From contig OY970355.1 in assembly GCA_963718525.1 (NCBI GenBank), positions 1,920,001 through 1,984,000 on the forward strand: a DNA stretch of 64,000 bases, written 5' to 3'. The notes beneath the pieces were generated by a model. The model had not been told where the DNA came from, did no database searches, and saw nothing but the letters and a program-made list of their open reading frames with translations. The DNA comes from Candidatus Dormiibacterota bacterium. Its GTDB lineage: Bacteria; Chloroflexota; Dormibacteria; Aeolococcales; Aeolococcaceae. Made by a program: the position numbers and the translations under genes. Below are positions 55,925 to 64,000 of the stretch, piece after piece. Within the stretch, counting starts at the first letter, position 1, and each line of letters begins with the position of its first letter.

Positions 55925-56155
55925 CGGCGCATCCTACAAGGGGTAGGAGCGGCGCCCCCCCTCTCGGAGCGTCGCGTGACAGAGCGTAGCCGCATTCGGG
56001 GCGTTTGAGCCGATTCGTCAGACCGATCTTTGCGGCCCGTTGCACCGTCACCACCGTCGCCATGCGTGCGTCTGACTTCGTTAACGGTCCGTTGCTGTGG
56101 GCTGTGATCACCTGACCGGCTGGTACCCTGCGGCAATGCGAGCACCGGACTCCCG

Positions 56156-57217
56156 TTGAAGGGGCTCATCCTCAGCGGCGGCAAGGGAACGCGGCTGCGG
56201 CCGATCACCCACACCGGCGCGAAACAACTCATCCCCGTCGCCAACCGGCCGATTCTCTTCTATGCCATCGATGCCCTGACCCAGGCCGGGATCCACGACA
56301 TCGGCATCATCGTTGGCGACACCGCCGACGAGGTGCGCGCCGCGGTGGGCGACGGATCGAAGTTCGATGCCAGCGTCACCTTCATCCCCCAGGAGGCGCC
56401 GCTCGGCCTCGCACATGCGGTCGGCATCGCCCGCGATTTCCTCGCCGGGGACAGTTTTGTCATGTATCTCGGCGACAACCTGATCGCCCAGGGAATCGGG
56501 ACGCTCGTCGACGAATTCCAGCGCTCGGAAGCCGACACCATGATCCTGTTGGCCCGGGTTCCCGAGCCCCAGCGCTTCGGGGTGGCGGAGCTCGAGGACG
56601 GACGGGTGATCTCGCTCGTGGAGAAGCCGTTGGTGCCGCGCTCCGACCTGGCGCTGGTGGGCGTGTACCTCTTCTCGCCGCTGATCTTCGAGGCAATTGA
56701 CGCCATCGAGCCGAGTGCCCGAGGCGAGCTCGAGATCACCGATGCGATTCAGCGAATGATCGACACTGGCAAGAGCGTCCTGCCGCACATCATCGAGGGC
56801 TGGTGGAAGGACACCGGCCGGCTTGACGACATCCTCGAAGCCAATCGGATGATCCTGGACACACTCGAGGCGCGATGCGATGGCATGGTGGGTGAGGACG
56901 TCCGCCTGCACGGCAAGGTGGTGGTGGAGGAGGGGGCCACGCTGCGCAACTGCGTGGTTCGTGGGCCGGCGATCATCGGCAGTCGCACCGTGGTCGACAA
57001 CGCATACATCGGCCCGTTCACGTCCATCTACTTCGACTGCGTGGTGCGCAACGCGGAAATCGAGAACAGCATCGTTCTCGAAGGCACGAGGATCCACGAC
57101 GTCGGTGGCAAGATCGACGGATCGCTCATCGGCAAGGAGTGCGAGGTCTGCAAATCGCCGGCGCGCCCGACCGCCGTGCGGCTGATGCTCGGCGACCACT
57201 CTCGCGTCGAGCTCTGA
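56156..57217 (+). CDS. rmlA: Glucose-1-phosphate thymidylyltransferase (long form)
   Basis: GGKGTRLRP, AKQL, LGDN, EKP, RGELEITDA, WWKDTG, hexapeptide tail. Confidence 0.9.
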   Translation: MKGLILSGGKGTRLRPITHTGAKQLIPVANRPILFYAIDALTQAGIHDIGIIVGDTADEVRAAVGDGSKFDASVTFIPQEAPLGLAHAVGIARDFLAGDSFVMYLGDNLIAQGIGTLVDEFQRSEADTMILLARVPEPQRFGVAELEDGRVISLVEKPLVPRSDLALVGVYLFSPLIFEAIDAIEPSARGELEITDAIQRMIDTGKSVLPHIIEGWWKDTGRLDDILEANRMILDTLEARCDGMVGEDVRLHGKVVVEEGATLRNCVVRGPAIIGSRTVVDNAYIGPFTSIYFDCVVRNAEIENSIVLEGTRIHDVGGKIDGSLIGKECEVCKSPARPTAVRLMLGDHSRVEL

Positions 57218-57268
57218 CGGCATCGACGTGAGGCGCAACTGCCCACTCGCCGCGCCGGGTGAGCGGCA

Positions 57269-58117
57269 CTGAGGTACGTCGTGCTCGGCGCGTCCGGGCA
57301 GCTCGGCGGGGACCTCGTCGAGGAGGGAACGCGGCAAGGCCACGAGATGGTCGGCCTGACGCAGCTGGAGTGCGACATCACCGACGCATCCGCTGTCCAA
57401 CGGGCCATCGGCGAAGCTCACCCGGACGCCGTCATCAACGCCGCGGCCTGGACGCGGGTCGACGCTGCCGAGGAGCACGAGACGACCGCGGAGGCGGTGA
57501 ACGCCACCGGCGCAGGCTATGTCGCGGCGGCCTCGGCGGCAGCAGGCATTCGCTGCTGTCACGTCAGCACCGACTACGTGTTCGACGGCACGGCGACATC
57601 GCCGATCCCCGAGACCGCCGTGGCTGCACCACGGTCAGCCTACGGGCGGACCAAGTGGCACGGCGAGATTGCGGTGCGAGAGCGCAACCCTGACCACATC
57701 ATCGTTCGCACGAGCTGGCTCTACGGCCGCGAGGGCCCCAACTTCGTGCTCACGATGTTGCGCATCGCCGCCGAACGCCCGCAGGTTCGAGTTGTCGCCG
57801 ACCAGCACGGGGCGCCGACGTGGACCGGCCATCTCGCGCCCGCGATGCTCAGGCTGCTCGAGGTGGGACCGCCGGGGACATACCATCTCACCAACAGCGG
57901 CGTCACCACCTGGCATGGGCTGGCCGTCGCCGCCATCCGCTCGCGCGGGGGGATGGCCGAGGTCGTGCCGATCACAACCGCGGAATATCCGACCCAGGCC
58001 ATACGCCCCGCGTACTCGGTGCTCGACAACCGCGCATGGCGTGAGCTTGGTGAACCGCCCTTGCCCGACTGGCAGGAAGGGCTTCGCGCCTACCTGGCGA
58101 CTCTCGACGCCCGCTGA
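57269..58117 (+). CDS. rmlD: dTDP-4-dehydrorhamnose reductase
   Basis: GASGQLG, NAAAWT, STDYVFDG, YGRTK, DQHGAPT, RPAYS; start uncertain (CTG 57269 or GTG 57281). Confidence 0.9.
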   Translation: MRYVVLGASGQLGGDLVEEGTRQGHEMVGLTQLECDITDASAVQRAIGEAHPDAVINAAAWTRVDAAEEHETTAEAVNATGAGYVAAASAAAGIRCCHVSTDYVFDGTATSPIPETAVAAPRSAYGRTKWHGEIAVRERNPDHIIVRTSWLYGREGPNFVLTMLRIAAERPQVRVVADQHGAPTWTGHLAPAMLRLLEVGPPGTYHLTNSGVTTWHGLAVAAIRSRGGMAEVVPITTAEYPTQAIRPAYSVLDNRAWRELGEPPLPDWQEGLRAYLATLDAR

Positions 58118-58127
58118 GCCGGCTCGA

Positions 58128-58523
58128 TCAGTCCTCGGGTTCCGGCTGAGTTCGCTTGTCGGCACTGATGTACAGGAGCCCGCCGAACAGCCCCGCATTC
58201 TTCAGGAAGTGGACGAGGCTGGCGCGCCGCTCGTCGGGCTTCTCGGACTTCCAGAAGGGATGGCCGATGATCGTGCTGGGGATCAGCGTCAGCGCAAGAA
58301 TGCGGGCGGACGTCTTTGGCAGGAAACCAAGTGCGAGCGTCGTCCCGGCGACCATCATGGTCGCGCCCTGCACCTTGGCGATCATCGGCTCATTGGGCAC
58401 CATCGGCAGCGCATCCGCCGCGATCTTGGCGTAGCGCTCCGAATTGTTGAACATGCCGTAGCCGGAATACACAAAGATCCCGGAAAGCAGGAAGCGGCCG
58501 GCGGTTCTGATCAGCGTTCGCAT
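58128..58523 (-). CDS. DoxX-family membrane protein
   Basis: GRFLLSGIF, GHPFW, FLKNAGLFGGLL. Confidence 0.85.
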   Translation of the reverse strand: MRTLIRTAGRFLLSGIFVYSGYGMFNNSERYAKIAADALPMVPNEPMIAKVQGATMMVAGTTLALGFLPKTSARILALTLIPSTIIGHPFWKSEKPDERRASLVHFLKNAGLFGGLLYISADKRTQPEPED

Positions 58524-58618
58524 GGACCATGACTTTAGGTCAGATGTACCGGGACGCCGATCCGGCGCCGCTGGGATCAGAATTGCCCTCCTTGCGTCCA
58601 CGTCCAGGGAGTGTGCTC

Positions 58619-58831
58619 ATGGCTGAGAGCGTCTACCGCGTCACCGAGCTGGTCGGAACCAGCGCCGAGTCCTGGGAGAAGGCGGCCCAGCTCGCGATCG
58701 AGACTGCGTCCTCGTCGCTCCGCGATCTGCGCATCGCCGAGGTGGTCAAGCTCGACATGACCGTCGAGAACGGCAAGGTCGCGCGCTTCCGCACGCGCCT
58801 CAATGTCTCCTTCAAGTACGAGAACGAGTAG
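58619..58831 (+). CDS. Dodecin-family protein
   Basis: SVYRVTELVGTSAESWEKAA...SLRDLR...LNVSFKYE. Confidence 0.9.
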   Translation: MAESVYRVTELVGTSAESWEKAAQLAIETASSSLRDLRIAEVVKLDMTVENGKVARFRTRLNVSFKYENE

Positions 58832-58867
58832 CCGCGCGCACGGAGCTTTTGCGCCATAGTTCGCTCG

Positions 58868-59740
58868 ATGTCCGTCGATCGCCAGCCGCGGATCCAGCCC
58901 TCGGCGTTCACGTCTCGGGGTCACCAACTCGCCTACACTGAATTCGGCGAGGGTAAGCGCTGGGTGTTGCTCATGCCGGGCCTGCTCGTCCCGGCGCTGA
59001 TGCAGGAGCCCCTCGCCACGGCCCTGGCCGCGAGCGGGGCGCACGTGCTGACGCTCGACCCACTCGGCCACGGCCAGTCCGATCGCCCCGACGACATGGC
59101 GGAGTATTCGATCGAATCCTTCGCGGGTGACGCCGTCGCGCTGCTCGACCATCTCGACATCGATGAAGCGGTGATCGGGGGAACCTCTCTCGGTGCGAAC
59201 GTGACACTAGAGATCGCGCACGCGGCGCCGCAGCGGGTGCGGGGCATGATCATCGAGATGCCGGTGCTCGAGAACGCGCTGGTTGCATCGGTGATCGCCT
59301 TCGGCCCCCTGCTCGTTGCGCTGCACTTCGGCGAGCGGCTGATGCGCCCGGTCGCGGCCGGCCTGCGTCGGGTCCCGCGGCGGCTGCTGCCCTTCTGGGG
59401 CAACGTGGCGCTCGACGTGGTCCGTCAGGATCCCGGACCCAGCGCCGCGCTGCTTCAGGGACTGTTCTTCAGCCACATCGCTCCGTACAGCGCACAGCGG
59501 CGTGAGCTGACCATGCCGTCGCTGGTCATCGGACATCACATCGACCCGGTCCATCCGTTCTCCGACGCGGGCGTGCTCACCGGCGAACTCCCCAACGCGC
59601 GGCTCGTCGAAGCGTCCAACATTCTCGAGCTGCGCCTCCGCCCGGAACGTCTCACAGCGGAAATCGCGGGGTTCATCGCCGAGTGCTGGTCGCCGCGAGC
59701 GGTCGCGAAGCCTCGCCGCCAGCGCCGCCGCACCGCCTGA
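58868..59740 (+). CDS. Alpha/beta hydrolase
   Basis: DPLGHGQS, GTSLG nucleophile motif, DPVHP. Confidence 0.85.
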   Translation: MSVDRQPRIQPSAFTSRGHQLAYTEFGEGKRWVLLMPGLLVPALMQEPLATALAASGAHVLTLDPLGHGQSDRPDDMAEYSIESFAGDAVALLDHLDIDEAVIGGTSLGANVTLEIAHAAPQRVRGMIIEMPVLENALVASVIAFGPLLVALHFGERLMRPVAAGLRRVPRRLLPFWGNVALDVVRQDPGPSAALLQGLFFSHIAPYSAQRRELTMPSLVIGHHIDPVHPFSDAGVLTGELPNARLVEASNILELRLRPERLTAEIAGFIAECWSPRAVAKPRRQRRRTA

Positions 59741-59759
59741 CGATAGGCTGGTGTTCGAG

Positions 59760-60767
59760 ATGTCCCAGACCGCTGCCCCACGCCCCCGAGTTCTGAGTGG
59801 CATCCAGCCGGATTTCGGTCTCCACCTGGGCAATTACCTCGGCGCCCTGCGCAACTGGGCCCGTGACCAGGACCGCTATGAGAACTATTTCTGCATCGTC
59901 GACCTGCACGCGCTCACACGCCACCCTGAACCTGAACGCCTTCGCTCGCTGACCCTGGAATTGGCTGCGATGTACATCGCGTGTGGACTCGACCCCGCGC
60001 GTTGCGAGATCTTCGTGCAATCGCACGTCCCCGCTCATACGCAACTGTGCTGGATCCTCGAGACGCTCACGCCGATGGGCTGGCTCGATCGCATGACCCA
60101 GTTCAAGGCGCGGATCGAGGCTCAGGGTCGCGAGCGGGTCAATGCCGGGGTCTTCACGTACCCGGTGCTGCAGGCAGCAGACATCCTGCTCTACGACGCG
60201 GACTTCGTCCCCGTCGGCGAGGATCAGCGGCAGCACATCGAGCTGTCCCGCGACCTCGCGAACCGGCTCAACTCACAACGTGGGGATATCGTGAAGGTAC
60301 CTGCCGCGCTGATCAGCCAGGTTGGGGCTCGCGTCATGGGCCTCGACACGCCGGAGGAGAAGATGAGCAAGAGCATTGCCATCGAGCGCGCCGGTCACGC
60401 GGTCCTGCTCCTCGATCCTCCGGACATCGTGCGCCGGAAGATCGCACGGGCAACCACCGACACCGATCCCGCCGTGCGCAGGCCCGTCGGCCCGGGGGTT
60501 GCCAATCTCCTCGAGATCTACGCCGCGTTGCAGGACGTGAGCACGGACGCCGCGTATGCGGAGTTCGAAGGCAAGCGCTACAGCGTGGTGAAGTCCGCGG
60601 TCGCCGATGCGATCGTCGACGCTCTGGCGCCGATTCAGGCTCGATACGCGGAGCTTCGAGTTGACGAGGATGGGCTTCGCCGCACCCTCGCCGAGTCGGC
60701 CGCTCGCGTGCATCTCGTCGCGGACGCCACCCTGCAGCGCGTGCAGGAGGCCGTCGGCCTGCGCTGA
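59760..60767 (+). CDS. trpS: Tryptophan--tRNA ligase (bacterial type)
   Basis: SGIQP, HLGNY, DLHALT, YPVLQAADI, VPVGEDQ, KMSKS. Confidence 0.95.
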   Translation: MSQTAAPRPRVLSGIQPDFGLHLGNYLGALRNWARDQDRYENYFCIVDLHALTRHPEPERLRSLTLELAAMYIACGLDPARCEIFVQSHVPAHTQLCWILETLTPMGWLDRMTQFKARIEAQGRERVNAGVFTYPVLQAADILLYDADFVPVGEDQRQHIELSRDLANRLNSQRGDIVKVPAALISQVGARVMGLDTPEEKMSKSIAIERAGHAVLLLDPPDIVRRKIARATTDTDPAVRRPVGPGVANLLEIYAALQDVSTDAAYAEFEGKRYSVVKSAVADAIVDALAPIQARYAELRVDEDGLRRTLAESAARVHLVADATLQRVQEAVGLR

Positions 60768-60770
60768 TCC

Positions 60771-61898
60771 TCAGGCGAGGGCCGCGTCGATCTCCTCGAG
60801 TGTCGCATGCACCTCGGGCTGTGCGAAGTGGATGCGGGCGGGCTCGAGCAGGTCGATGAGTCGCGCGGCGAGCCCTGCCTTGGCGTCCATCGGGTGGAGC
60901 GACCCGTCCAGGTAGGCGGTGATCACCTCGTCCGGAGCGTCGAAGGTGATCCGGCCGCCGTTGGCCTCCGACCGTTCGACCACGAATGGACCGCCGGCGA
61001 TGCCGAAGACGAGCTTCTCGATCCAGTCGAGGATCGGGTTGAAGACGATCTCGCCGGGCGGACAGAACGCCTTCCTGACCTTCGCCATGATCTCGTCAGG
61101 ACTGTCATGAACAAACACGGCGGAGCCGGGATCGCTCTTGCTCATCTTCATGGCCGCGAAGACATCGCGCGCCGACTCCGGCGGCACCGGCCATATCGGT
61201 GGGCGGCGAAGTCCGAGCAGGAGCGGATGATGGAGGGCAACCGGCTTGATGGGAGCGCCATCGACACCGGAGAGTGGGTGGATGCGCATGTGCGTGGCCA
61301 CGTCGCGCGCGATCACGTGCGCCTTTCGCTGATCCATGCCCGCGTGGGCGATGTGTACGCCGAGCGCGAAGATGTCAGCCGCCTGCATCGCCGGGTAGAT
61401 GAGCTTGGCGAAGTCGACACTGTCGCCTTCCTGACGGCCGAGGATGCTGATGCTGCGCTGCATCCGTGCGAGTGTCGTGTTCTTGCTCACCTCGATCATC
61501 GTCGCCCAGTACTCGTCGTCGTTCCGATAGAGATCCGACGCAAGGACGAATTCGACCGAATCCGGGTCGGCGTCGACACAGAGCAACGACGCGCGGAACG
61601 CTTCGGTGAAGTAGCCGGTGGCGATGCGGCGGATGAGGTCGCGGTCGCCGCCGAGCTTGTCGTTGATCCACGTGTGCCAGTCGGCAAGGAGCACCGAGCA
61701 GTGCACGCCGGCGGCGGTGAGGTCGCGGACCTTGGCCATGCTCATCAGCCCGGTGCCGAGATGCGTCTTGCCGGAGATCTCGAAGCCGATGTAGTGACGC
61801 AACTGGATGCCGGCGTCCATGAGGGGCGGCAACTCGTTAGCGCCGATGACCTCGGCGGTGTTGCGCTCGATGAGCGCCATGCGTTCAGCGGTGGTCAC
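60771..61898 (-). CDS. tyrS: Tyrosine--tRNA ligase, archaeal type
   Basis: HYIGFEISG..HLG, ADWHTWINDKLGG, IYPAMQAADI, AHAGMDQRKAH, KMSKS, KAFCP, LHPMDAK; no S4 domain. Confidence 0.92.
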   Translation of the reverse strand: MTTAERMALIERNTAEVIGANELPPLMDAGIQLRHYIGFEISGKTHLGTGLMSMAKVRDLTAAGVHCSVLLADWHTWINDKLGGDRDLIRRIATGYFTEAFRASLLCVDADPDSVEFVLASDLYRNDDEYWATMIEVSKNTTLARMQRSISILGRQEGDSVDFAKLIYPAMQAADIFALGVHIAHAGMDQRKAHVIARDVATHMRIHPLSGVDGAPIKPVALHHPLLLGLRRPPIWPVPPESARDVFAAMKMSKSDPGSAVFVHDSPDEIMAKVRKAFCPPGEIVFNPILDWIEKLVFGIAGGPFVVERSEANGGRITFDAPDEVITAYLDGSLHPMDAKAGLAARLIDLLEPARIHFAQPEVHATLEEIDAALA

Positions 61899-61936
61899 GT
61901 CCGCTGAGTGTGCCAGACCGGTATCAGGCGGTGAGG

Positions 61937-62275
61937 TCAGTCGTCGTGCGTGTCGTCGTATGCGACGCGATGGGGCGCGACCTCGTCAAGGAGATCGGCC
62001 TCCCAGTCGAGCAGCGCGTCGTGGAGGCGCGCGGTGTTCCTTGCCTGCCACAGAGCGGCGGGAGCCGGGACCGGGAGGACCACCTCGAGCTCCGCGAGCT
62101 GGCGCCACATATCCGGTGGCACCTGGCGGTCGCGTTGCAGGTTGTGGTGCTCGACGCTGTCGAGGACGCGTTCGAGCCGCTGAATGTGTTCGATGCGCAG
62201 CCTGCGTCGGGCCTTGAGGTCTTCGGCGCGGGCCTTGGCCGCATCCATGTCGGTGATTGCGCTCTGGAAGCTCAT
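61937..62275 (-). CDS. Hypothetical helical protein (112 aa)
   Basis: ORF with typical codon usage filling the gap; possible promoter TTTACT-N16-TAACCT upstream. Confidence 0.6.
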   Translation of the reverse strand: MSFQSAITDMDAAKARAEDLKARRRLRIEHIQRLERVLDSVEHHNLQRDRQVPPDMWRQLAELEVVLPVPAPAALWQARNTARLHDALLDWEADLLDEVAPHRVAYDDTHDD

Positions 62276-62377
62276 CTCGATTGTCGTCTCACGTGTCTAC
62301 CTTCGCTGCTCAGGTTATCCAGCCTGTCATACAAGTAAACGGAACAGGGTTACGGTCGGATTACGGCCTGAGCAGGG

Positions 62378-63085
62378 TTAAGGTTCCGGATTCGACATCC
62401 CGTCGATTTTTTCGCCCTCGATGTGGCGAGAGCGCCGCGGCCCTTGCAGGATCGTCACGGCACCGGGACCGAACACCTCCCAGCTGCCATGGCGCAGCAC
62501 CGCGGCGGTGCGCTCGTCGATACCGATGACCTTGGTCTCCTCGCCGAGGCCCTCCTGTGCCCATGGAATCCATGCGTCGCCGAGCACGTCGAAGTGGGGG
62601 AGGATCGCGCAGCCCGGCACGAGTTCCAGGGCGTCCACCGAGCGCTCGTCGACCTCACCGGGCCAGCTGGTCTGGACGAGACACCACTCGCAGAGGGCCA
62701 TTGCGCCGGCGGATGACCCGGCGAGTGCCGCGCCAGACCGCCAGGCCGCGGCGATCGCCGTCCAGACGGGACTGGCGCGCAGAACCTCGACGACCCACCC
62801 GGGATCGCCGCCGGCGATATAGACCAGCCCGGCCCCTGCGGCCGCCTCCACGATCTCCGGCGAGCAGGCGTCGTTCTTGTCGCGGATGCGCAGTTCGTGC
62901 ACCTCGAGCCCGAGGCCCGCGAACCATCGCCGGGCCAACTCAACCGCTCCGGTCGCAAAGTCCTGGGCAGCGGTCGCGACCACGTAGGCGGGTCGTCCGC
63001 CGCACGCGTCGCGAAGAATCTCGTCCTGACGTTCGTTGCCGGGGTGGAACTCGTCGCCGCCGACGAGTGCGAGTGGACCGTGCAT
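62378..63085 (-). CDS. Peptidase S51 / cyanophycinase-like protein
   Basis: LVGGDE, YIAGGD, AGSSAGAMA, LPHFD, GIDERTA; AAGGAGG RBS. Confidence 0.85.
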   Translation of the reverse strand: MHGPLALVGGDEFHPGNERQDEILRDACGGRPAYVVATAAQDFATGAVELARRWFAGLGLEVHELRIRDKNDACSPEIVEAAAGAGLVYIAGGDPGWVVEVLRASPVWTAIAAAWRSGAALAGSSAGAMALCEWCLVQTSWPGEVDERSVDALELVPGCAILPHFDVLGDAWIPWAQEGLGEETKVIGIDERTAAVLRHGSWEVFGPGAVTILQGPRRSRHIEGEKIDGMSNPEP

Positions 63086-63155
63086 TGACGACAGTCTCCC
63101 TCCTTTCGGGAAAAGAGGCGCGTCCCATGCATCCCCCTACACTCTCAAGGCGCTC

Positions 63156-63908
63156 ATGATGGATCCGGAAAAATACGCAGCCGCGACAGTGGTGTCACGT
63201 CGCGACCCGGCACCGGACCTCTGGATCATCCGGATCCGTCCCGAGATCGAGCTTCCCTACCGCCCCGGACAGTACGTGACCCTCGGGCTGCAGTCGAACG
63301 GCCGGGTCATCGAGCGGCCGTACTCGATCTGCTCGTCGCCACTCGAGGATGAGATCGAGCTCTTCATCGAGCGGGTTCCGGAAGGGGAGCTCTCGGACCC
63401 GCTGTTCGCCCTCGGTGTCGGCGGCAAGGTCATCGTCCGCCGGCGGACCAAAGGCCTCTTCCTCCGCGAGGCACCCCTCCTGGACGAGCCACACCTGTTC
63501 GCCGCCACGGTCACCGGGATCGCACCCTTCGTCAGCCTGTTGCGGACTCTCGCCACACGCGCTCGCGCCGGTGAATGGGCCCCGGTGCCGGTCGTCGCAC
63601 TCCAGGGCGCGGCTCGCTCGGTCGAACTCGGGTACGCGGACGAGCTCGTCGCGCTGGATCACGAGTTCGATTGGTTCACGTACGTGCCGACCGTGAGCCG
63701 GCCGTGGGAAGACCCCGAATGGACGGGCGAGCTCGGCAGGGTCGAGGACGTGATGCGCAAGTACGCCGACGCAGCCGGGATCCGACCGGGAAATGGCGGT
63801 GTCTTCCTGTGCGGTCACCCCGGGATGATCGGGGGGGCACGAGCGATCATGCGCCGCGCGGGGTTCGACAACAAGGCAATCCGCGAAGAGCAGTACTGGC
63901 CGGATTGA
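63156..63908 (+). CDS. fpr: Ferredoxin--NADP reductase (bacterial FPR-type)
   Basis: PGQY, RPYSICS, GELS, TGIAPF, VPTVSR, FLCGHPGMI, EQYW. Confidence 0.85.
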   Translation: MMDPEKYAAATVVSRRDPAPDLWIIRIRPEIELPYRPGQYVTLGLQSNGRVIERPYSICSSPLEDEIELFIERVPEGELSDPLFALGVGGKVIVRRRTKGLFLREAPLLDEPHLFAATVTGIAPFVSLLRTLATRARAGEWAPVPVVALQGAARSVELGYADELVALDHEFDWFTYVPTVSRPWEDPEWTGELGRVEDVMRKYADAAGIRPGNGGVFLCGHPGMIGGARAIMRRAGFDNKAIREEQYWPD

Positions 63909-64000
63909 TGCTCGCCTCGATCGACTGGGTGACCCTGCATCAGAAGTTCGGGTTCATCGTCGTGGTGGCCGCGGTGCTCGGCGCGCTCGTGGCGCTGTTC
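63908..64000 (+). CDS. Membrane protein (partial, runs off window end)
   Basis: TGATG coupling with fpr; MLASIDWVTLHQKFGFIVVVAAVLGALVALF hydrophobic. Confidence 0.5.
   Translation, partial: MLASIDWVTLHQKFGFIVVVAAVLGALVALF

Follow-up and report, generated by a model that had tools for sequence, protein, structure and literature searches.

An archaeal-type tyrosyl-tRNA synthetase and a C1:G72 tRNA-Tyr in place of the bacterial tyrosine pair in most genera of a Dormibacteria family

The stretch of DNA analysed in this study (the window, 64,000 nucleotides of contig OY970355.1 from a Candidatus Dormiibacterota bacterium) carries a gene for a tyrosyl-tRNA synthetase (TyrRS), tyrS, whose product is of the archaeal rather than the bacterial type. 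An earlier note made from the window's letters had proposed this identity, and had also described the gene as converging on a bacterial tryptophanyl-tRNA synthetase gene, trpS, with a 3-nucleotide gap. Both descriptions are correct (Table 1), although trpS is not part of the change described here. The follow-up extends to the tRNA, because the only tRNA-Tyr gene of the same genome also has the archaeal/eukaryal set of features, and to related genomes, in which enzyme and tRNA occur strictly together.

Table 1. Features of the tyrS locus (positions in the window; A1 is an alignment of nine TyrRS sequences)
Feature	Position	Strand	Basis
tyrS, archaeal-type tyrosyl-tRNA synthetase, 375 aa, GTG start	60771..61898	-	open reading frame, NF006330, 2cyc_A, PF00579
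HIGH-type class I signature, HLGT, TyrRS residues 46-49	61752..61763	-	H and G invariant in A1
MDQRK block, TyrRS residues 188-192	61323..61337	-	D, Q and R invariant in A1
KMSKS class I signature, TyrRS residues 251-255	61134..61148	-	invariant in A1
trpS, bacterial-type TrpRS, convergent with tyrS	59751..60767	+	TIGR00233, 302.7 bits (cut-off 176.75)
Spacer between the trpS and tyrS stop codons, 3 nt	60768..60770	.	coordinates

The six blocks quoted in the earlier note are all present in the TyrRS translation: HYIGFEISG (residues 35-43), ADWHTWINDKLGG (72-84), DFAKLIYP (162-169), AHAGMDQRKAHVIA (184-197), KAFCP (276-280) and LHPMD (334-338). Additionally, the columns of YPAMQAADIF (residues 168-177), the putative tyrosine-pocket block, are invariant in A1. 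The Arg and Lys of MDQRK presumably correspond to Arg174 and Lys175 of the Methanocaldococcus jannaschii enzyme. In M. jannaschii TyrRS those two residues read C1 and G72 (PMC1934993). Arg132 is a further residue of that enzyme involved in reading C1:G72. The bacterial GGSDQWGN-type block is missing, as neither 'DQW' nor 'GGSDQ' occurs in the translation, and a Pfam scan of it returned PF00579 alone (residues 33-351 of 375), with no S4 domain. The NCBIfam equivalog NF006330 (the same as PRK08560) scored 395.1 bits against a cut-off of 220, and 393.7 bits in a six-frame search; in a control set of four archaea and ten bacteria that cut-off was passed in 4 of the 14 genomes, the output giving no identity for those four. 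The general tyrS model TIGR00234 gave only 88 bits, below its cut-off of 113.8, and matched only its N-terminal half (model positions 6-211 of 406). The best solved-structure match was 2cyc_A, also 375 aa long (E 1.2e-119, collinear from 5-360 to 5-360), which is the TyrRS of Pyrococcus horikoshii (PMC2831299) and shows the same hlgt in the structure-match alignment. The close likeness to Thermococcales given in the earlier note thus has a basis in the solved structures, but enzymes of DPANN and Asgard archaea are nearer, both in the tree described below and by phmmer score (460-491 bits, against 403 for P. horikoshii). These results confirm that the window gene encodes an archaeal/eukaryal-type TyrRS, and by the TIGR00234 score and the tree the protein does not group with bacterial TyrRS, a grouping that the earlier note had named as a refutation.

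The host genome is a single contig of 3,336,189 bp. PF00579 was found in only two genes of the whole 3.34-Mb genome, trpS and the window tyrS, and TIGR00234, searched for the bacterial tyrS, gave nothing over its cut-off. The window tyrS is the sole TyrRS gene of the genome. ARAGORN found 47 tRNA genes with one tRNA-Tyr(GTA), at C1:1226315-1226390 (-), which lies outside the window and 754 kb from tyrS. This 76-nt tRNA combines C1:G72 and A73 with a variable loop of 5 nt, its CCA is encoded, and none of the 47 genes is a long-arm or G1:C72 tRNA-Tyr. Bacterial tRNA-Tyr has G1:C72 and a long variable arm (PMC5370408, PMC1934993), while C1:G72, A73 and a short variable loop make up the archaeal/eukaryal set. 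Since the sole tRNA-Tyr carries that set and the sole TyrRS is archaeal-type, the whole recognition pair has switched and not the enzyme alone, which is the tRNA identity switch that the earlier note had listed among its options. The tRNA-Trp of the host keeps the bacterial G before CCA. All three tRNA-Pro genes of the host (C1:1301776-1301851, 2177129-2177203 and 2799279-2799353) have C1:G72 and an A before the 3' end; tRNA-Tyr shares these acceptor-end signals, so discrimination between Tyr and Pro would have to rest on the anticodon.

The short tRNA-Tyr is under selection as a tRNA. In all 27 copies taken from related genomes the acceptor stem CCCAGGG/CCCTGGG and A73 are kept, while the T-stems vary by compensatory pairs. 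In an alignment of ten tRNA-Tyr sequences that included genes from Asgard archaea and from the candidate phyla radiation (CPR), 99 % of the cells pair and 16 of 20 pairs show double changes; none of 500 shuffles reached this, and slid controls gave 25-49 % pairing. One copy (L027, G058:C1:2628254-2628330) has an extra T-loop base and is 77 nt long; its genome is a single contig, and the extra base may be a sequencing error.

The distribution of the pair was determined in an order draw of 61 genomes, made up of 30 from the window's family (f1), 30 from its sister family (f2) and the window's own. Some of the genomes counted carry an unpublished flag (G048 and G051 in f1; G027, G032, G036 and G063 in f2), and no conclusion rests on these alone except for genus g13, of which G051 is the only member. 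Within the window's genus, all 24 genomes carry the archaeal-type enzyme at 81-96 % identity, and all six organism-named proteins among the 120 best TyrRS matches (63-89 % identity) belong to Candidatus Dormibacteraeota or Dormibacteria. In the order draw an archaeal-type second PF00579 match was present in 26 of the 30 f1 genomes, at 120-150 bits in 25 and in two fragments in G074, and a full-length short tRNA-Tyr (91-100 % identity) was found in exactly the same 26. The two G074 fragments (G074:C19:4896-5736) are adjacent pieces in different frames, covering model positions 4-94 and 134-291, and reflect a frameshift or an assembly error. The remaining four f1 genomes (G042, G049, G064 and G076) have two strong PF00579 matches, TIGR00234 scores of 296-308 bits and a long-arm, G1:C72 tRNA-Tyr of 83-85 nt. 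Among relatives with the bacterial pair as a whole, TIGR00234 gave 295-308 bits and the match extended to model position 376-404. No archaeal-type TyrRS was found in 16 sister-family genomes at E<=1e-10, and no f2 genome of the order draw had a PF00579 match in the 120-150-bit range. The long-arm tRNA-Tyr pattern was found in 10 of the 30 f2 genomes, and G037 matched by BLAST. A bacterial TyrRS of the sister family has S4 and SYY_C-terminal domains; that of G049 showed no S4 by Pfam at E<=0.001, though its TIGR00234 match reaches position 402 of 406. In a phylum draw of 301 genomes the archaeal-type enzyme was present in 11 of 13 f1 genomes besides the window's and in none of 287 others (E<=1e-40).

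The earlier note had suggested that the transfer was old. This is supported by the presence of the gene throughout the genus and in most genera of the family, by TyrRS divergence within the family down to 59 % identity, and by codon usage like that of the host, as the note had also stated: G+C content at third codon positions (GC3) is 0.864 in tyrS, 0.808 in trpS, 0.894 in rpoB and 0.81-0.85 in four neighbouring genes. A tree of the C-terminal part of RpoB from 22 genomes, built with a careful search (G003 had no RpoB match at the threshold), recovered f1 (99/98) and f2 (100/99) as groups. A single origin of the archaeal pair fits its supported branches but was found in only 10 % of bootstrap trees. 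The backbone of the family is a polytomy, so this tree cannot place the four bacterial-pair genomes as basal or nested.

Gene order differs between genera. tRNA-Tyr and tyrS lie on the same strand in 8 of 30 tRNA loci, with a gap from tRNA to tyrS of about 22-285 bp in L029 and L037-L042 (genera g5, g12, g14 and g15) and about 1.2 kb in L043, and in a named Dormibacteria record (L093) the tRNA-Tyr is about 50 bp upstream of tyrS. Within the Dormibacteria part of the TyrRS tree, such cassette loci occur on each of the three deepest branches, which by parsimony makes the cassette the earlier arrangement. Genera g8, g13 and g18 and the window's own genus instead have tyrS tail-to-tail with trpS. 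In G047 the full tRNA-Tyr (C16:883451-883525; locus L044) is 36 kb upstream of tyrS, and positions 28-76, its 3' part, recur at 92 % identity (919538-919586) some 55 bp ahead of tyrS, as if an element had integrated into the tRNA of an original cassette. G062 (positions 1-42), G053 (23-76) and G055 (1-38) also contain incomplete copies of tRNA-Tyr. In genomes with the bacterial pair, tRNA-Tyr is followed on the same strand by tRNA-Thr(GGT), adjoining it in G042, G049 and G076 and about 1.1 kb off in G064. When loci L154-L156, L158-L160 and L162 were compared, three sister-family loci likewise had tRNA-Tyr directly before tRNA-Thr(GGT). The tRNA-Thr(GGT) gene of the window's genome (C1:3248300-3248373) has no such neighbour: a coding region runs up to it, and no scar of an old tRNA-Tyr is present upstream, where similarity begins only some 10 nt ahead of tRNA-Thr.

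Clustered at 50 %, the Dormibacteria enzymes fall together, and identity to the next clusters is 46-51 %; the named members of these are a Daviesbacteria (CPR) protein, an 'archaeon' and a Micrarchaeota protein. A TyrRS tree was made from the best 80 of 564 confirmed relatives in species-representative genomes (87 rows, quick IQ-TREE, Shimodaira-Hasegawa-like approximate likelihood ratio test (SH-aLRT), midpoint root). In it, a clade with an SH-aLRT support of 99 unites the seven f1 rows with eight rows that bear Chloroflexota-type labels (Dormibacteria, Chloroflexota, Chloroflexi, Dehalococcoidia or Aggregatilineales). This clade lies on the DPANN/Asgard side of the tree, and a branch with support 100 separates it from a 34-row CPR clade of Shapirobacteria type. 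Inside that CPR clade are also enzymes labelled 'uncultured Gammaproteobacteria' (L049, L050, L053, L055 and others) and one from a record labelled 'Candidatus Methanoperedens' (L067); these records are probably mislabelled or mis-binned.

The pair is also found in bacteria beyond the class. Five Chloroflexota-labelled genomes (G368-G372) each have a short-spacing C1:G72 tRNA-Tyr, one TrpRS-like and one archaeal-type PF00579 match, and no bacterial TyrRS. Compared with the window's genome, RpoB is 78-86 % identical within f1, 79 % in f2 and 73-80 % in other members of the class; in G369-G372 it reaches only 58-68 % over long segments (G368 had no match), which places these four outside the class. 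The tRNA-Tyr of G368, G369 and G372 is nearly the same gene as that of the family; in G371 and G370 the acceptor end is common with the family and the D-arm or anticodon arm differs. One enzyme clade and a near-identical tRNA in lineages whose closer relatives have the bacterial pair would suggest that the pair spread between bacteria. In one out-of-class clade (L104, L112 and L122) the archaeal-type tyrS has a tRNA-Gln(TTG) about 400 bp upstream, encoded on the opposite strand. Four CPR-like loci (L071, L079, L081 and L109) have a C1:G72 tRNA-Tyr 40-275 bp upstream of an archaeal-type tyrS, and these tRNAs have a long variable arm.

Two explanations that would make the window gene less than a replacement can be weighed together. 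The genome comes from a metagenome (soil metagenome runs) and record labels in this region of sequence space are often wrong, so tyrS might be an assembly chimera or archaeal contamination. However, the GC profile of the window is uniform and GC3 is host-like, the gene is in every genome of the genus, it adjoins the bacterial trpS on single contigs in seven other genus genomes of the order draw, and the matching tRNA-Tyr lies elsewhere on the same single contig. A Logan contig of 1,582 nt, from a run that may be the source sample, spans 59883-61464 including the trpS-tyrS junction with 0 differences; of the contig pieces listed from three other studies none bridges that junction, the sequencing runs listed include no RNA run, and neither point was used as evidence. 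The host RpoB is bacterial-type (1,129 aa, 73-86 % identical to class kin). The host is a genuine bacterium and tyrS is not contamination, and the chimera that the earlier note had named as a possible refutation deserves almost no credence. The note had also raised a natural orthogonal pair and a relaxed specificity, that is, an archaeal-type TyrRS kept as an extra or specialised copy beside a bacterial one, or an enzyme that charges bacterial tRNA-Tyr. Nothing found here speaks for either, though the idea was reasonable at the outset, as bacterial and archaeal pairs do not cross-react (PMC1934993). The genome, however, has neither a bacterial tyrS nor a long-arm or G1:C72 tRNA-Tyr, and no genome carries both systems among the 61 of the order draw and the five outside the class. 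The orthogonal pair is thus not supported, relaxed specificity is not needed, and we regard this explanation as very improbable.

The origin of the tRNA is a separate question, and here similarities outside the variable region were compared, over about 70 comparable positions and with only four archaeal tRNA-Tyr genes. The archaeal sample is small because few matches were tRNA-Tyr, and archaeal introns may hide more: a pattern search of five archaeal genomes gave two matches, one a genuine tRNA-Tyr (Helarchaeota) and the other not a tRNA, and in a covariance-model search of 25 archaeal genomes tRNA-Tyr was found at 3 of the 30 loci kept, the rest being mostly tRNA-Cys, Asn, Arg, Thr and Met. 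The short tRNA-Tyr is 82 % identical to that of the CPR-like L081 (anticodon arm 17/17) and 73 % to L079, 62-65 % to the lineage's own long-arm tRNA-Tyr, and to tRNA-Cys 67 % (sister family) and 69 % (a DPANN archaeon). One possibility is that the enzyme gene alone was transferred and the host's long-arm G1:C72 tRNA-Tyr evolved in place by flipping its first pairs and losing the variable arm. The short tRNA does have bacterial hallmarks, including A37, a D-stem of 3 bp and a D-loop whose sequence is also that of the long-arm tRNA-Tyr in this lineage; the anticodon arm of the short tRNA in G370 is identical to that of the sister family's bacterial tRNA-Tyr; and a bacterial origin has been inferred for CPR C1:G72 tRNAs that retain the variable arm (Mukai et al. 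2017, PMC5370408). However, the similarity to the lineage's own long-arm gene is below that to the CPR C1:G72 tRNA, the short gene does not occupy the ancestral tRNA-Tyr/tRNA-Thr(GGT) site, where no scar is left, it adjoins tyrS in many genera, and outside the class members of the same enzyme clade come with a nearly identical tRNA gene. Evolution in place is therefore considered unlikely. Alternatively, a duplicated host tRNA-Cys(GCA) could have been recruited, its anticodon changing to GUA and its acceptor stem being remodelled. BLAST aligned tRNA-Cys at 86 % over positions 8-62 (sister family; L045-L047) and at 82 % over 7-62 (the genome's own tRNA-Cys, G000:C1:2672873-2672946), with 18/20 positions of the D-arm and 14/17 of the anticodon arm identical. 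Against this, the acceptor stem agrees at only 7/19 and the T-arm at 10/17 positions, and tRNA-Cys of DPANN is as similar as that of the host lineage. The tRNA-Tyr model ranks tRNA-Cys or tRNA-Asn first in most DPANN genomes, so the likeness to tRNA-Cys may be generic; recruitment was downgraded and now appears quite improbable.

The reading preferred here is that a working TyrRS and C1:G72 tRNA-Tyr pair replaced the ancestral bacterial pair in most genera of the family through horizontal transfer, and we hold this to be very probable. The enzyme is predicted to charge tRNA-Tyr(GUA) carrying the archaeal identity set, and may read the first acceptor pair through the Arg and Lys of MDQRK together with A73 and the anticodon, in which case it would need neither a variable arm nor an S4 domain. 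The pair would have entered the ancestor of most genera of the family horizontally, most likely on a single DNA segment in which tRNA-Tyr immediately preceded tyrS, and the ancestral pair, an S4-like TyrRS and a long-arm G1:C72 tRNA-Tyr beside tRNA-Thr, would then have been lost. In the window's genus tRNA-Tyr and tyrS presumably separated later, after which tyrS came to lie tail-to-tail with trpS. Activity and mode of recognition, like co-transfer as a cassette and the direction and donor of the transfer, are what we infer from these comparisons.

Several results weigh against parts of this history. The CheckM-type completeness of the host genome is 88.9 % despite its being a single contig. 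The RpoB tree, with its backbone polytomy, allows a single acquisition in the family and goes no further. The cassette is found neither in the window's own genus nor in any of seven out-of-class loci, where the tRNA is more than 3 kb from tyrS. On the archaeal side of the TyrRS tree, which is midpoint-rooted only, the Dormibacteria clade is one arm of a polytomy (support 82, drawn open) that points to no particular donor and does not show nesting within the archaea. The short tRNA-Tyr is 71 % identical to the Helarchaeota tRNA-Tyr and only 59-61 % to two DPANN tRNA-Tyr genes. Its D-stem of 3 bp, its D-loop of 10-11 nt and its A36-A37-A38 are as in bacterial tRNAs; the sampled DPANN tRNA-Tyr has a 4-bp D-stem, a 7-nt loop and G37. 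This suggests a tRNA whose body looks bacterial and whose acceptor end looks archaeal, and because the body is unlike the sampled archaeal tRNA-Tyr, a straight transfer of the cassette from an archaeon to a bacterium is doubtful. Finally, activity, dependence on C1:G72 and orthogonality are predictions from sequence. In view of the bacterial-style tRNA body, it may tentatively be proposed that tRNA-Tyr(C1:G72)-tyrS is a portable 'identity-swap module' that ousts native pairs in Dormibacteria, in at least three lineages outside the class and perhaps in CPR bacteria, and that this self-sufficient unit could have been assembled in bacteria and spread from bacterium to bacterium, rather than having come whole from an archaeon.

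The other genes around tyrS encode RmlD, DoxX, dodecin, a hydrolase, a peptidase S51 and an FNR-like reductase, and none is a mobile-element gene. Next upstream of tyrS, on the same strand, is a 112-aa open reading frame without a Pfam match (window 61937-62275, -). An Rfam scan of window positions 56000-64000 found nothing at E<=0.1, neither a T-box nor another known leader.

The contrast between G1:C72 long-arm and C1:G72 short-arm tRNA-Tyr is a textbook difference between domains, and it underlies the most widely used orthogonal pair in genetic-code expansion. The data presented in this study describe a switch that is both natural and complete, in free-living soil bacteria of ordinary size whose close sister lineages give a before-and-after comparison, which bears on how a cell survives the exchange of an essential synthetase-tRNA pair that does not cross-react with the native one. 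They show that tRNA identity is not fixed by domain even beyond the unusual setting of CPR and DPANN, and the cassette suggests that the barrier was crossed by enzyme and tRNA travelling together. The enzymes and tRNAs are also further candidate orthogonal pairs from mesophilic, high-GC hosts.

The kind of system described here is already known from CPR bacteria, as the earlier note had correctly stated, and Dormibacteria are an extension of its range. According to Mukai et al. (2017, Life 7:8, PMC5370408), no bacterium with an archaeal/eukaryotic TyrRS was known until their study, in which archaeal-type TyrRS with C1:G72 tRNA-Tyr was reported only in Parcubacteria, Microgenomates, Dojkabacteria and Katanobacteria. 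AD3, Dormibacter, Chloroflexi and Actinobacteria are not mentioned in the main text of that paper, and a literature search that left out most subscription journals found no report of archaeal-type TyrRS or C1:G72 tRNA-Tyr in Dormibacterota or Chloroflexota. As in the CPR bacteria, an archaea/eukarya-type TyrRS is combined with a C1:G72 tRNA-Tyr in a bacterium, forms lacking the variable arm occur there too, and the CPR paper proposes a transfer involving DPANN-type enzymes. Unlike the CPR bacteria, however, the hosts here have genomes of free-living size (3.3 Mb) and belong to Dormibacteria and other non-CPR lineages, and the enzyme clade is separate from the sampled Shapirobacteria clade of the CPR. 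What is new relative to that report is this host range, the tRNA-tyrS cassette, and a replacement mapped genus by genus against sisters with the bacterial pair. The CPR tRNA-Trp(A73)-ORF1-TrpRS-A operons (PMC5370408) likewise place a tRNA of archaeal identity beside an archaeal-type synthetase, but they concern another amino acid, contain an extra open reading frame and coexist with a bacterial TrpRS, whereas the tyrosine pair here stands alone and its bacterial counterpart is gone. The P. horikoshii TyrRS (2CYC) and the M. jannaschii complex (1J1U) share with the present system the HLGT, MDQRK and KMSKS blocks, the lack of S4 and a cognate tRNA with C1:G72 and A73; the present system differs in its bacterial host, in an enzyme nearer to DPANN and Asgard, and in a tRNA with A37 and a long D-loop. 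Lastly, E. coli engineered to have its TyrRS-tRNA-Tyr replaced by an archaeal pair (PMC2887954) shows the same complete replacement as a laboratory construct, whereas the replacement here is natural, old and inherited through a whole family.

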